IMG/VR virus record: IMGVR_UViG_2534681649_000007
Source of the DNA: a virus
Lineage: Duplodnaviria; Heunggongvirae; Uroviricota; Caudoviricetes
DNA length: 6,192 nucleotides
Direction: 5' to 3' (one strand)
Part shown: positions 1 through 6,192 of the stretch, in pieces
How positions within the stretch are numbered: position 1 is the first letter of the stretch
How the letters are laid out: each line of letters starts with the position of its first letter
Position numbers and translations under genes: made by a program
Notes under the pieces: generated by a model
Told to the model about the DNA's origin: nothing
The model's input: only the letters and a program-made list of their open reading frames with translations
The model's database searches: none

Positions 1-131
1 ACCCAGTTGTAATAACCGATCCTGGATACACCAAATACCTGACACATCGCTTCAATGGGAAATTGTTGTCGCCATTGTTCGATTAACGCGTATTTTTCAG
101 CGACTCCTGTGCAAAATACGCTGTTGCTTTT
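1..131 (-). CDS. IS600-like transposase OrfB frame, N-terminal portion (partial, continues beyond window)
   Basis: Open frame on minus strand from the TAA at 132-134 down to window start. Same frame as the orfB part of the fused ORF in copy 2 (SNSVFCTGVAEKYALIEQW...). One nonsynonymous difference versus copy 2 (Ile versus Ser, codon at 18-20). Confidence 0.6.
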
Positions 132-384
132 TTAATATATCTCGCTCAAGGCGAGCTTCATTTAACGCCTTACGCAGTTGCAGAATTTCAGATTCCAGTT
201 CAGCCACCGTGCGGGAACCAGGAGTACCGAGCCCTTTTCTGGCGGCGGTAACCCATTGTCCTAAAGTGCCTTCAGGAAGGGATAATCGGGAAGCGCCTTC
301 ACTGATCGAAAGTTGATTTTCAAGAACCGTTCTGACAGCTTCGGCTTTGAACTCTTTAGAGTAACGTTGGTTTTTTCTGCTCAT
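97..384 (-). CDS. IS600-like OrfA (HTH transposase regulatory protein), 95 aa with non-canonical C-terminus
   Basis: ATG at 384, stop TGA at 97-99. Translation MSRKNQRYSKEFKAEAVRTVLENQLSISEGASRLSL... is a typical IS3-family OrfA. The A-run at 127-132 on plus (6 T) is one short of the length that would give the conserved OrfA end KKATAYFAQESLKNTR, so the product here ends KKQQRILHRSR. Confidence 0.8.
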   Translation of the reverse strand: MSRKNQRYSKEFKAEAVRTVLENQLSISEGASRLSLPEGTLGQWVTAARKGLGTPGSRTVAELESEILQLRKALNEARLERDILKKQQRILHRSR

Positions 385-445
385 TATTAGCTCCTTCTGA
401 TGCCATTCTATTTCAGGAAGGAGTGTCCGTTAAACTCAGGCTACC

Positions 446-637
446 TCAATCTTCTCTTATTTTGAAATACAGATTCGTCAGATAAGTCAGAAGCCCCAGA
501 AGCAGACTTCCCAGCACACCAATCGCAGCCCACTGTGATGGACTGACCTGATCCAACCACTGCAAAAACCAGTAGCCGGCACTGCCGGCGGAGGTGCCGT
601 AGGCAATGCCCGTTGAAATTTTGTCCATGGATTTCAT
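446..637 (-). CDS. Phage class II holin (phage 21 S / Stx-phage S-like), C-terminal tail truncated by IS insertion
   Basis: 63-aa product [28 protein letters not shown]...[11 protein letters not shown] with the dual-start motif M-K-S-M and two hydrophobic segments. Strong SD GGAGGTGA (RC of 641-648) upstream of ATG at 635-637. The stop codon TGA (446-448) is the terminal TGA of the IS600-like inverted repeat, so the native charged C-terminal tail is replaced. Confidence 0.8.
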
Positions 638-929: not shown

Positions 930-1004
<75 letters not shown>

Positions 1005-1007
1005 ATA

Positions 1008-1083
<76 letters not shown>

Positions 1084-1085
1084 GC

Positions 1086-1162
1086 TGGCCCACCACCGAG
1101 GACTCGAACCTCGCACCGTCAACTTAGAAGGTTGATGCTCTATCCGGATGAGCTAGTGGTGG
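1086..1162 (-). tRNA. tRNA-Arg (anticodon UCU; decodes rare AGA/AGG)
   Basis: Minus-strand sequence CCACCACTAGCTCATCCGGATAGAGCATCAACCTTCTAAGTTGACGGTGCGAGGTTCGAGTCCTCGGTGGTGGGCCA. Acceptor CCACCAC/GTGGTGG with unusual C1:G72, anticodon stem TCAAC/GTTGA, loop CTTCTAA, T-arm CGAGG-TTCGAGT-CCTCG, encoded CCA. Confidence 0.8.
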
Positions 1163-1163
1163 T

Positions 1164-1240
1164 TGGTGGCCCTTGCTGGACTTGAACCAGCGACCTGGCG
1201 ATTATGAGTCGCTCGCTCTGACCAACTGAGCTAAAGGGCC
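1164..1240 (-). tRNA. tRNA with CAT anticodon, ileX-like (likely tRNA-Ile2 lysidine type reading AUA; elongator Met not excluded)
   Basis: Minus-strand sequence GGCCCTTTAGCTCAGTTGGTCAGAGCGAGCGACTCATAATCGCCAGGTCGCTGGTTCAAGTCCAGCAAGGGCCACCA. Anticodon loop CTCATAA. Acceptor and T-arm closely resemble E. coli ileX as recalled. Confidence 0.8.
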
Positions 1241-1352: not shown

Positions 1353-1377
1353 CTTTCAAATGCCCATGTGAAGTGGT

Positions 1378-1521
1378 CAACAAAAACTGGCCACCGAGTT
1401 AGAGTTTTTCCAGTATCGATTTTCCGATTCGTTTGGGGGTAACCCACCGTTATATTCGTGCGGTCTTAGTGCGCTGTAATATCCAACGATATAGTCCGTT
1501 ATGGCGTGAGCTGCCTCGCTG
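1378..1521 (-). pseudogene. IS911 orfB 3' fragment, separated from the rest of orfB by the IS1 insertion
   Basis: Minus-strand translation continues the OrfB frame: ...AHAITDYIVGYYSALRPHEYNGGLPPNESENRYWKNSNSVASFC, stop TGA at 1378-1380 inside the IRR. Confidence 0.8.
1513..1521. repeat. 9-bp target-site duplication (GCCTCGCTG), left copy, for IS1
   Basis: Identical 9-mer immediately flanks both IS1 ends (1513-1521 and 2290-2298). Confidence 0.9.
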
Positions 1522-1770
1522 GGTAATGCTGCCAACTTACTGATTTAGTGTATGATGGTGATTTTAAGGTGCTTGCGTGGCTTCCATTTCCATCAGATGT
1601 CCTTCCTGCTCCGCTACTGAAGGCGTGGTGCGTAACGGCAAAAGCACTGCCGGACATCAGCGCTATCTCTGCTCTCATTGCCGTAAAACATGGCAACTAC
1701 AGTTCACTTACACTGCCTCTCAGCCCGGTACGCACCAGAAAATCATTGATATGGCCATGAATGGCGTCGG

Positions 1771-3352
<1,582 letters not shown>

Positions 3353-3396
3353 ATCACCTCTGTTCAGGTGGCCAAATTCAGTGTGCCACTTCAGGT

Positions 3397-3466: not shown

Positions 3467-3889
3467 TCAATGCACAACGACAGAATCGTCGGACGACCCA
3501 CCACCGCTGAAATGTGCTTTCCGGTAAACGGCCTGAACTGCGTCATCATGCGCATCAATTGCCGTACTCAACGCTTCCTGCGCCGCCAGTAATGCACGGC
3601 GTTCCAGGGTATCGAAGATACAGAGTCGGTGACGCAGCTCACGCGGAAGAATTGCCAGAACCGCAGGGATCAGTTTCTGAATTTTCTCCCTTTGCGCTTT
3701 CGTTTCACCTTTCAACCAACGGTGATAGATATTCTGCTGATTGTTCCAGTCCTTGCCTGGTACCAGAGGCAATTCGCCGCCCCCCTGCCGCAGATATTCT
3801 TCAGTAATTGCGTTAGCGACCCACGCCTGCCCTTTTTCGGCTGCCAGGGCTAACAGCACTGATTCGATGTGCTCATGCCTGATTTTCAT
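3467..3889 (-). CDS. YdaT-like prophage protein (occupies the cII position downstream of the cro-like gene)
   Basis: 140-aa ORF MKIRHEHIESVLLALAAEKGQAWVANAITEEYLRQGGGELPLVPGKDWNNQQNIYHRWLKGETKAQREKIQKLIPAVL.... SD GAAGGTGA upstream of the ATG at 3887-3889. The start overlaps the dicC-like 3' end by 17 nt. Family assignment is from recalled similarity to Rac/CP-933P YdaT. Confidence 0.55.
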   Translation of the reverse strand: MKIRHEHIESVLLALAAEKGQAWVANAITEEYLRQGGGELPLVPGKDWNNQQNIYHRWLKGETKAQREKIQKLIPAVLAILPRELRHRLCIFDTLERRALLAAQEALSTAIDAHDDAVQAVYRKAHFSGGGSSDDSVVVH

Positions 3890-4100
3890 GAATCACCTTC
3901 CCAGGTCGTTTTGCCTTACGATATTCGTCATAAACTTTGGGGTCGTACTGAAGTTCCCCGCCAGATGCCTCTTGCAGGCGCATCGCGCGGCCTTCAGGAA
4001 CCAGTTCCCCCCATGCAGCAATGCTTGCCAGCCTAACTCCTGCGGCATTGGCAAGCTTTGTTTTGCTGCCAAAAAACGCTATAGCATCAATTTTCAACAT
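3873..4100 (-). CDS. dicC: DicC-like Cro-type small regulator
   Basis: 75-aa product MLKIDAIAFFGSKTKLANAAGVRLASIAAWGELVPEGRAMRLQEASGGELQYDPKVYDEYRKAKRPGKVIHENQA closely resembles E. coli Qin DicC as recalled. SD AAGGAG 7 nt upstream. Divergent from the dicA-like gene. Confidence 0.8.
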   Translation of the reverse strand: MLKIDAIAFFGSKTKLANAAGVRLASIAAWGELVPEGRAMRLQEASGGELQYDPKVYDEYRKAKRPGKVIHENQA

Positions 4101-4176
4101 ATCGAGCTCCTTAGATTTTCCTAAGGAAACTAGATCGTAGAGAAACCTAAGTCAAGAAAGATTAGAATTCCCTAAT
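4101..4176. promoter_or_regulatory. Divergent promoter/operator region between dicC-like and dicA-like genes with repeated TTAG-N6-CTAA palindromes
   Basis: TTAGATTTTCCTAA (4111-4124) and TTAGAATTCCCTAA (4162-4175, ending 1 nt before the dicA ATG), plus related CCTAAG/CTTAGG half-site-like motifs at 4120-4126 and 4145-4150. Layout is analogous to cI/cro operators. Confidence 0.5.
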
Positions 4177-4584
4177 ATGAAAAACGAAACCTTCGGTGCT
4201 CGCCTCTTACATAGGCGTAAAAAATTAAAACTGTCTCAGGCCGCATTAGGTAAGCTGGTCAAAGTGGCTCACGTAACAATTTCTCAATGGGAAAGAGATG
4301 AAACACAGCCGGCGGGGAAAAGATTATTCGCACTGAGCCAAGCGCTTCAGTGCTCACCGACTTGGCTTCTTTTTGGGGATGAAGATAAACAACCAGGCGA
4401 ACCGATCCCGGATAATCAGCCAGCCATTCTGACAGAAGATCAAAAAGAGTTACTTCAACTGTTCGACGCACTGCCTGAGTCAGAGCAAAAGGCCCTGTTG
4501 TCAGAGATGCGTGCTCGAGTTGAAAATTTCAACAAACTTTTTGAAGAACTACTCAAAGCTCGCAAAAGAAGCGCAAACAAATAA
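4177..4584 (+). CDS. dicA: DicA-like HTH (XRE-family) repressor
   Basis: 135-aa product MKNETFGARLLHRRKKLKLSQAALGKLVKVAHVTISQWERDETQPAGKRLFALSQALQCSPTWLLFGDEDKQP...PESEQKALLSEMRARVENFNKLFEELLKARKRS. Shares the HTH_3 N-terminal domain and the conserved C-terminal blocks of E. coli DicA as recalled. Confidence 0.85.
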   Translation: MKNETFGARLLHRRKKLKLSQAALGKLVKVAHVTISQWERDETQPAGKRLFALSQALQCSPTWLLFGDEDKQPGEPIPDNQPAILTEDQKELLQLFDALPESEQKALLSEMRARVENFNKLFEELLKARKRSANK

Positions 4585-4649
4585 TCCCCTTTTTTCTCCA
4601 CACCCTGTAATAAAAAGCACAAACTTTCAAACACTTGTGTTTTTTACAT

Positions 4650-4728
4650 CAAAAAAACTTAGGTTTTTATACATAAAATCTTGACTCCACGTCTTAGGTT
4701 ATTCTAAATTTCATTCATCAAGACACCG
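4650..4728 (+). promoter_or_regulatory. Candidate promoter/operator region upstream of the ydfA-like gene
   Basis: Possible -35 TTGACT (4673-4678) and -10 TAAATT (4697-4702) with 18-nt spacer. Two CTTAGGTT motifs (4650-4657, 4685-4692) resemble the half-sites in the dicA-dicC operator region. Small palindrome ACACCGCACGGTGT at 4715-4728. A weak hairpin plus T-run at about 4610-4640 may terminate dicA. Confidence 0.3.
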
Positions 4729-4786
4729 CACGGTGTTCTCAGCAAACAGTTCCACTACCCCGGCGTTAAGGGGAAATGAGGTCAGC

Positions 4787-4939
4787 ATGGATACTATCGA
4801 TCTTGGCAACAACGAATCCCTAGTGTGTGGCGTGTTTCCCAATCAGGACGGCACATTCACCGCCATGACGTATACCAAAAGCAAAACGTTTAAAACCGAA
4901 GCTGGCGCACGTCGCTGGCTTGCCAAAAATACCAGCTAA
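4787..4939 (+). CDS. ydfA: YdfA/YdaF-like small prophage protein (DUF-type, function unknown)
   Basis: 50-aa product MDTIDLGNNESLVCGVFPNQDGTFTAMTYTKSKTFKTEAGARRWLAKNTS from the ATG at 4787, preceded by GAGGT. It follows the dicA-like gene as ydfA does in Qin. The longer tracked ORF start at 4733 has no RBS. Confidence 0.7.
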   Translation: MDTIDLGNNESLVCGVFPNQDGTFTAMTYTKSKTFKTEAGARRWLAKNTS

Positions 4940-4983: not shown

Positions 4984-6149
4984 TGAGGTGTACTGGCAAT
5001 AGCGGACACTACCATTTGTTCTTTTTTTAAGCAGCCATCTGATGATATTTTTCCCTGAAGGCTGCCGGGGAGATATTCCCCAGACGAGAGTGACGACGCT
5101 GACGATTGTAGAAAATCTCAATGTATTCCCGTATTACTGAGATGGCTTCATCCCGGTTATTAAAACGATAGTGGCTCAGGCTCTCATTTTTCAGCGTTCC
5201 CCAGAAGCTTTCCATCGGAGCGTTGTCGTAACAGTGACCTTTACGCGACATTGATGTTTTCAGACCAGACTGCTCCTGTATGACCCGGTAATCGTATGCG
5301 CAGTACTGTGAACCTCGATCAGAGTGGTGGATTAGCCCGGCAGGTGGGCGCTGGCTCCTGAGCGCCATAAACAGGGCTTTACCTGTCAGCTCTTTTGTCA
5401 TGCGCTCTCCCATGGCGTAGCCGACAATTTCGCACGTATAAACATCTTTGATGCCAGCGAGGTACAACCATCCCTCCTGTGTGGCAACATACGTCAGGTC
5501 CGCCACCCAGACCTGATTTGGTGCTGTAGGAGCGAACGTCTGGTTCAGCAGATTTGGCGCAACTGGCAGATTGTGGTTCGGGTTCGTAGTCGCTCTGAAC
5601 TTGCGTTTCTGCTTACAGCGTAGCCTTAGCTCCTTACGAAGACGTGCCAGTCGGTCACGACCAACGATGATGCCATTCTCTGCCAGCTCCGTCTGGAGCC
5701 GCCGGGTTCCATATGTTTCGCGAGTGCGGATATGTGCCACCTTAATCTCCAGTTTTAGCCGCTCATCACTTTGTTTTCTGTCTGAGGGTTCATGCTGTAC
5801 CCAGTTGTAATAACCGCTCCTGGATACACCAAATACCTGACACATCGCTTCAATGGGAAATTGTTGTCGCCATTGTTCGATTAACGCGTATTTTTCAGCG
5901 ACTCCTGTGCAAAATACGCTGTTGCTTTTTTTTAATATATCTCGCTCAAGGCGAGCTTCATTTAACGCCTTACGCAGTTGCAGAATTTCAGATTCCAGTT
6001 CAGCCACCGTGCGGGAACCAGGAGTACCGAGCCCTTTTCTGGCGGCGGTAACCCATTGTCCTAAAGTGCCTTCAGGAAGGGATAATCGGGAAGCGCCTTC
6101 ACTGATCGAAAGTTGATTTTCAAGAACCGTTCTGACAGCTTCGGCTTTG
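4984..6149 (-). mobile_element. IS600-like IS3-family element, copy 2, missing its IRL-proximal ~99 bp (replaced by IS1 end)
   Basis: IRR TGAGGTGTACTGGCAATAGCGGACACTACC at 4984. Sequence is collinear with copy 1 up to 6149, where the IS1 terminus begins. Same minus orientation as copy 1. Confidence 0.85.
5027..6149 (-). CDS. IS600-like orfA-orfB in-frame fusion (OrfAB transposase-like), N-terminally truncated by IS1
   Basis: A single ORF spans both frames because the A-tract has 8 A (T-run 5926-5933 on plus) instead of 6 in copy 1. Translation ...ERDILKK-SNSVFCTGVAEKYALIEQW... with DDE-type motifs VWVADLTY, HSDRGSQY, DNAPMESFW. The only in-frame start is a TTG inside the IS1 terminus (6161-6163). 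Confidence 0.7.
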
Positions 6150-6192
6150 GGTAATGCTGCCAACTTACTGATAGTGTTTTATGTTCAGATAA
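6150..6192 (-). mobile_element. IS1 copy 2, terminal fragment at window edge (insB-proximal end), inverted relative to IS1 copy 1
   Basis: GGTAATGCTGCCAACTTACTGATAGTGTTTTATGTTCAGATAA is the reverse complement of an IS1 right end including the insB 3' codons (...LNIKHYQ stop). The element continues beyond the window. Confidence 0.85.

Follow-up and report, generated by a model that had tools for sequence, protein, structure and literature searches.

One-base length variants at the IS600 frameshift run of a prophage contig: an inherited 6A allele and an unreplicated 8A copy

We analyzed a 6,192-nt stretch of viral DNA (hereafter, the window) and found two partial IS600 copies with runs of six and eight A at the site of the element's frameshift signal. 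The reading that we favor, to which we give a probability of roughly three in four, is that the documented –1 frameshift signal of IS600 here carries ordinary one-base gains and losses in its A7 homopolymer. The six-A run (6A) of copy 1 is a genuine inherited allele, real but an ordinary inactivating homopolymer deletion. For copy 2, the odds lean slightly against a true run of eight A (8A), and its extra A reflects either slippage that happened very recently or an error in the consensus of a draft built from repeated DNA.

The window is the entire contig AKNB01000167.1 of the draft assembly GCA_000268185.1, in reverse orientation. Its DNA is a piece of a Qin/lambdoid-type prophage, and both of its ends fall inside multicopy repeats, IS600 on one side and IS1 on the other. 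The elements are arranged as follows:

1-448, minus strand: IS600 copy 1 (IS coordinates 1-448; left inverted repeat at 420-448), cut by the contig end
446-637: class II holin gene, adjoining IS600 copy 1
930-1240, minus strand: cluster of four tRNA genes (Met-CAT, Arg-TCT, Thr-TGT, Gly-TCC)
1367-3393: IS911, split by a complete IS1
1521-2289: the complete IS1 inside IS911
3873-4939: dicC/dicA/ydfA-like genes
4984-6148, minus strand: IS600 copy 2 (IS coordinates 101-1264; right inverted repeat at 4984-5013)
6149-6192, minus strand: terminal 44 nt of an IS1, insB-proximal end, interrupting IS600 copy 2 and reaching the contig end

The four-tRNA cluster sits between the end of IS911 and the holin gene and is apparently prophage-borne; an Rfam scan of the window returned the four tRNAs only and matched the IS600 hairpin described below to no family. 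Frameshift runs are canonical both in the IS1 inside IS911 (A6C, 1828-1833) and in IS911 itself (A6G, 3066-3071).

Both IS600 copies lie on the minus strand, and each shows a single end of the element, the left repeat in copy 1 and the right repeat in copy 2. Because of the IS1 insertion, copy 2 is missing the first 100 nt of IS600, that is, the left repeat, the ribosome-binding site, the ATG, and 12 codons. Across the 351 nt that the copies share (1-351 versus 5799-6149), the only differences are the A-run and one SNP at window position 19. It is uncommon for a single 6-kb contig to hold both a 6A and an 8A copy. A preliminary description of the window had reported the two run lengths as 6 and 8 A, and a homopolymer scan gave the same lengths and the same coordinates for copy 2 (5926-5933); the copy 1 run, described at 127-132, lies at 128-133 and had been placed off by one.

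A sister contig, IMGVR_UViG_2636415858_000002, is 99.9% identical to the window, and the holin-side junction of copy 1 is present both there (L120) and in Shigella boydii Sb227 (L006). The terminal IS1 is missing from the sister contig, and copy 2 is intact there (L066, 4535-5797). While 3-bp target duplications flank many IS600 copies at related loci, 6A and 8A ones included, L066 has none (GGC versus CTA), which suggests that the copy 2 locus took part in an IS600-mediated rearrangement.

We rebuilt a 1,264-bp IS600 reference from both window copies and translated alleles of 5 to 9 A explicitly. The features bearing on the frameshift and its products are the following:

88-127, minus strand: predicted 9-bp hairpin (arms 113-121 and 88-96) together with its spacer, a putative frameshift stimulator
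97-384, minus strand: orfA* of the 6A allele, 95 aa, HTH_Tnp_1 (PF01527), ending ...DILKKQQRILHRSR
122-127, minus strand: 6-nt spacer GCAACA, downstream of the A6 run
128-133, minus strand (T6 on the plus strand): A6 run of copy 1 from the homopolymer scan, A_AAA_AAG in orfA phase
5022-5028, minus strand: second IS600 A7 run, overlapping the orfB stop codon, used as an internal control tract
5027-5845, minus strand: complete orfB part, 272 aa, within the 378-aa fusion
5027-6163, minus strand: orfA'-orfB fusion of copy 2, a 378-aa open frame reading ...DILKKSNSVFCTG...
5886-5925, minus strand: the same spacer and hairpin in copy 2, a prediction
5926-5933, minus strand (T8 on the plus strand): A8 run of copy 2 from the homopolymer scan, with orfA and orfB in one frame

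With 7 A, frame 0 encodes an OrfA of 100 aa (...KKATAYFAQESLKNTR), and a –1 slip yields a product of 385 aa (...KKSNSVFCTG...). With 6 A, frame 0 ends after 95 aa, and the copy 1 protein has the aberrant tail QQRILHRSR; a –1 slip then gives the normal 100-aa OrfA and a –2 slip the 385-aa OrfAB. With 8 A, the 385 aa are read in frame as the same protein as the 7A frameshift product, and a slip is unneeded. A slippery heptamer of the form X_XXZ_ZZN is found in orfA phase in these three alleles, as A_AAA_AAA in 7A and 8A and as A_AAA_AAG in 6A. Relative to orfA, orfB sits in the +1 frame in copy 1 and is fused in frame in copy 2; its –1 placement is found only in the reconstructed 7A reference and in neither window copy. 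The preliminary description had placed orfB in the –1 frame with 7 A and had derived the 6A tail, the +1 position of orfB, and the restoration of OrfA by a –1 slip, all in agreement with the explicit translation. It had also pointed out that the end of the third frame parallels the OrfA end of IS911 in the same window, and the list of open reading frames confirms this likeness. Both proteins expected of an IS3-family element, an HTH OrfA and a DDE OrfB, are present, with precomputed Pfam matches to PF13276, PF00665, and PF13683 (DDE, rve) on the 272-aa OrfB as well as on the 378-aa fusion.

The predicted hairpin begins 6 nt after the A-run, inside the 4-10 nt range of frameshift stimulators, and has a computed minimum free energy of –20.3 kcal/mol (z = –2.5); the canonical orfA stop lies at its 3' foot. 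A possible pseudoknot between the loop GUCGC and a downstream GCGAC was seen by eye.

That 7 A is the canonical length, as the preliminary description had supposed, is borne out by the literature and by a census of copies. Sharma et al. (2014; NAR 42:7210, PMC4066793, Tables S4/S6) assigned IS600 to the cluster A_AAA_AAA_1 as "[true]" –1 frameshifting, with a shift at codon 86, an OrfA of 100 aa, and an OrfAB of 385 aa; the element is listed as having no upstream SD and with "structure: Y" downstream, and the proof is described as unpublished data. Scanning one genome per species for the pattern, we found 7 A in 42/42 IS600 copies of the complete genomes of Shigella flexneri SFBU1023 and Escherichia coli ECMA0423. 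On IMG/VR prophage contigs, at least 130 copies among the matches listed had 7 A, 11 had 6 A, and 3 had 8 A, and runs of 9-10 A were absent from the 144 IMG/VR copies scanned. We based BLAST allele counts on full-length rows of 100% identity and rejected the band of at least 99% identity, which holds partial matches. By this measure, the 1,333 complete E. coli genome records with a full-length match included 6 with an exact 6A copy and 3 with an exact 8A copy, and the 262 plasmid records with a full-length match included 3 with 8A and at least 12 with 6A. The inferred 7A ancestor is thus the overwhelming majority state and the published state.

Given this background, the favored reading can be set out as a mechanism. 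The signal of IS600 (IS3 family, IS3 group) consists of the slippery sequence A_AAA_AAA-G, the 6-nt spacer, and the predicted hairpin; on a 7A message, a ribosome continues in frame 0 to give OrfA or slips by –1 on A_AAA_AAA to give the transposase OrfAB, as published for IS600. Replication slippage after insertion would change the run length, at a rate about equal to that of other A7 runs in the same IS elements. Ribosomes on a 6A message would make the wrong-tailed OrfA*, with a –1 slip on the in-phase A_AAA_AAG regenerating some normal OrfA. In reporter assays with the IS911 stimulators, A_AAA_AAG shifts at 4.3% and A_AAA_AAA at 0.8%; with the IS3 pseudoknot, the respective figures are 39% and 25%. 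To give OrfAB, a 6A message would have to undergo a –2 or +1 event, so that essentially no transposase would be expected and the 6A copy is most likely transposase-defective. From 8A, OrfAB would be constitutive, but copy 2 has already been split from its 5' 100 nt by IS1.

The 6A run at the holin-side copy was recovered in three assemblies, namely the window, the sister contig, and the complete Sb227 chromosome (CP000036), which was deposited separately. At three more loci, two independent assemblies agree on 6 A (L009/L061, L004/L008, and RM12581/RM13514). We took allele frequencies from exact-sequence look-ups and set aside a protein-search cluster table that was too fragmented. The exact 95-aa product is on 122 contigs in its N5 form, among them several Sb227 entries labeled "IS600 ORF1," and on 184 contigs in its T5 form (~300 in total, from many projects); the canonical 100-aa OrfA, likewise in two forms, is on at least 1,000 contigs for each. 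The preliminary description had kept sequencing error as an alternative for both runs. Replication in three assemblies, a complete chromosome included, removes it for 6A, whereas for 8A it is a live option, with 7 A in the sister contig and singletons throughout the testable copies. Within the S. boydii lineage, 6A is a frequent allele, with at least 4-6 loci in Sb227 and 2/4 copies in the sister contig, and it may have spread there by gene conversion or some selection. An annotation of one such element deserves mention: in E. coli O145:H28 RM12581 (L179; NZ_CP007136.1, 2290-3445), RefSeq gives a two-piece "programmed frameshift" CDS of 1,156 nt, and orfB of this 6A copy is in the +1 frame despite that label.

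We grouped the IS600 copies by identical flanks to compare orthologous insertions. At five shared insertions, 6A in one copy is matched by 7A in the other: L001/L187 (fdhE locus), L005/L186 (pheA locus), L175/L038, L083/L128, and L116/L091. The same was seen for 8A versus 7A with both flanks matched (window copy 2/L066 and L145/L101) and with the left flank matched only (L177/L180). The chromosomal E. coli 8A copies behave alike, with the L176 insertion having 7A in 8 other O121 genomes and the L178 insertion in 1 other genome. Because other strains carry 7A at the shared insertions, the 6A and 8A runs appear, from the aligned copies, to have arisen in place after insertion. We considered a copy with the holin flank and 7 A (L025) as the ancestral 7A state at copy 1 and rejected it, as its flanks come from two different loci in a chimeric contig. 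This 1,380-nt contig (NZ_JBNGGG010000135.1, 1-1380), of 1.3x coverage in a "Streptomyces sp. UG1" assembly, carries an enterobacterial IS600 and looks like contamination combined with chimeric repeat collapse.

The preliminary description had read the two run lengths as slipped-strand switching of transposase expression, and it is on this point that our analysis departs from it. The frameshift run is variant in 14/144 IS600 copies in IMG/VR, among the matches listed. The 3' A7 run of the same element, where a one-base change at the orfB stop codon is harmless, has 7 A in 100 IMG/VR copies, 6 A in 12, and 8 A in 1 (13/113 variant), and in GTDB, that is, the two complete genomes, 7 A in 18 copies and 6 A in 4 (4/22 variant). 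At the start of IS911 orfA, the A7 run departs from 7 A in 3/33 copies and in the window as well, and the variation of other A7 runs in IS600 and IS911 comes to ~9-18%. The frameshift run does not exceed neutral A7 runs in variability, and control tracts that vary about equally leave the proposed switching without the excess on which it would depend. Its variability in the two complete genomes is below that of the 3' control (0/42 versus 4/22), which fits 7 A being conserved in recently transposed copies. The variability of the control tracts could itself be inflated by the same sequencing errors. In the window, the IS911 run just after the orfA start has 6 A (3313-3318, minus strand), compared with 7 A in the sister contig and in 30/33 other copies; the ATG is thrown out of frame with the rest of orfA, and the change is a second homopolymer indel private to this contig.

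IS600 belongs to a set of five insertion sequences that have expanded in every Shigella species (Hawkey et al. 2020). A three-state toggle of the A7 run in each IS600 copy, shaping this kind of expansion in Shigella, strikes us as unlikely, and the evidence neither requires nor supports an influence of such a toggle on the expansion of IS600. If the toggle were true, 8A copies, which are rare, would act as natural alleles with constitutive transposase, seeding bursts and soon being lost, and 6A copies would accumulate as producers of OrfA only, aided by the efficient A_AAA_AAG slip to wild-type OrfA, and modulate in trans the transposition of the remaining 7A copies.

The related idea of a contingency locus, in which reversible 6, 7, and 8 A states are selected to set an OrfA-only, a regulated, or a constitutive-transposase mode, draws on the run-length changes in both directions at orthologous insertions of many lineages and on the clean and distinct coding outcomes of the three states. 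We nevertheless hold it to be very unlikely. The same elements have neutral A7 runs that vary about equally, 7 A is short for a phase-variable tract, 8A was never seen inherited, and 42/42 copies at 7A in two complete genomes, with the control varying in 4/22, indicate conservation. As the excess over neutral tracts is absent, the A-run falls outside the contingency-locus class and is not a phase-variable locus.

We give still less credence to an active 6A sublineage that makes OrfAB through a –2 or +1 ribosomal shift or transcriptional slippage and transposes on its own in S. boydii. Many 6A copies do reside at different loci with 3-bp target duplications, a –2 shift yields the exact OrfAB, A_AAA_AAG is a very shift-prone heptamer, and IS3-family elements using +1 transcriptional slippage exist (PMC6211511). 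Each 6A copy with a same-flank match elsewhere, however, is matched at that site by 7A or by 6A again, which points to mutation after insertion rather than to insertion of 6A elements, and 6A is spread over several haplotypes (at least three, as defined by SNPs). Clonal spread of a 6A sublineage by transposition was rejected as the main explanation on the same ground, the orthologous insertions being 7A in other strains.

Ordinary homopolymer indels thus being the reading that we retain, the 8A run of copy 2 calls for separate treatment. The sister contig has 7 A at the copy 2 position and no IS1, and the two contigs are otherwise distinguished by three SNPs and two homopolymer indels, with nothing more. 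Both of these indels are in IS elements, and the eight runs of at least 6 bases in unique DNA agree between the contigs. The 378-aa fusion protein is on record solely in the window's contig, and all five 8A copies with an orthologue are singletons against 7A. A batch effect was also apparent, in that 6A was confined to older IMG genome ids and 8A to the newest. Taxon sampling or the sequencing platform could account for it, and some of the census variants may be platform artifacts and not mutations.

Two further 8A copies share a contig, IMGVR_UViG_2896595138_000002 (L121, 6134-7397; L145, 8968-10231), and have a common private SNP, C>T at IS position 300, 17 nt upstream of the run. The linked SNP suggests either that an 8A element was copied by transposition or gene conversion or that reads were cross-talking during polishing; it hints that elements with 8A are able to spread, and a natural 8A element probably exists in at least one case. 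Three other 8A copies (L176-L178) are annotated in RefSeq as plain single CDSs with the common protein id WP_106914028.1.

The preliminary description had likened 8A to the layout of engineered constitutive OrfAB mutants. Translation confirmed the in-frame fusion, but the likeness had missed the IS1 truncation, after which no native start codon is left; the TTG "start" of the 378-aa fusion falls inside IS1. Because IS1 truncated copy 2, its 8A fusion would have no native expression, judging from the sequence, in which the native start codon, promoter, and left end are all missing. Expression by read-through from IS1, on which the fusion would have to rely, is speculative.

The least credible alternative is that both variants are base-calling or assembly artifacts in a repeat-built draft contig and that both copies really have 7A: the window is a complete draft contig with repeat ends, its two private homopolymer differences from the 99.9%-identical sister contig both fall within IS elements, the direction of the variants tracks the era of the genome ids, and every testable 8A copy is a singleton, but the holin-junction 6A is reproduced in the sister contig and the complete Sb227 chromosome, the 95-aa product occurs on ~300 contigs of many projects, and the eight runs of at least 6 bases in the window's unique sequence match the sister contig.

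The IS600 site and its 7A form are already known, and the 6A and 8A alleles are already deposited and annotated in public genomes; a literature search found no paper describing the IS600 6A/8A alleles. The case illustrates that one-base homopolymer differences in multicopy insertion sequences of draft contigs should not be taken for regulation without locus-anchored reads. The natural 6A form of IS600 is real, common in the S. boydii lineage, and probably nonautonomous, a point to bear in mind when "active" insertion sequences are counted in work on Shigella genome decay. Any 8A allele that came to be confirmed would correspond in nature to the engineered constitutive OrfAB mutants and be a candidate driver of IS bursts.

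Several known systems offer a comparison. Phase-variable contingency loci resemble the A-run in that a +1 or –1 homopolymer change alters expression, and they differ from it in that the IS600 tract is short and has no excess variability over neutral A7 tracts. Insertion sequences using transcriptional slippage (Baranov et al. 2005, PMC1088944; IS1447 group, PMC6211511) have an A-run at the orfA/orfB junction, and indels in the run alter the frame that is read. Efficient slippage of RNA polymerase takes place at ~9 A/T in many bacteria (Baranov et al. 2005, PMC1088944), unlike the window runs of 6 and 8 A; because runs of 6-8 A are shorter than ~9 nt, the window A-runs are not a recoding site of this class. 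The A_AAA_AAG sites of IS911, IS3, and IS150 are recreated in phase by the 6A run of the window, with the difference that a –1 slip there leads to OrfA and not to OrfAB. Engineered fused-frame mutants of IS911, the work of Polard et al. in 1991, and of IS1 (InsAB'), by Escoubas et al. in the same year, reportedly make transposase constitutively. The 8A allele is the natural one-base-insertion equivalent of these mutants, except that the 8A copy of the window is without start codon and promoter. The closest relative is the IS600 A_AAA_AAA_1 site of Sharma et al. (2014) itself, with an element more than 99% identical, the shift at codon 86, the same downstream hairpin, and, when the run is 7 A, products of 100 aa (OrfA) and 385 aa (OrfAB). 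The window departs from it in having 6 and 8 A, in never placing orfB in the –1 frame, and in the truncation of copy 2 by IS1, and its copies are mutant alleles of an IS3-family –1 frameshift element rather than functional members for that feature.
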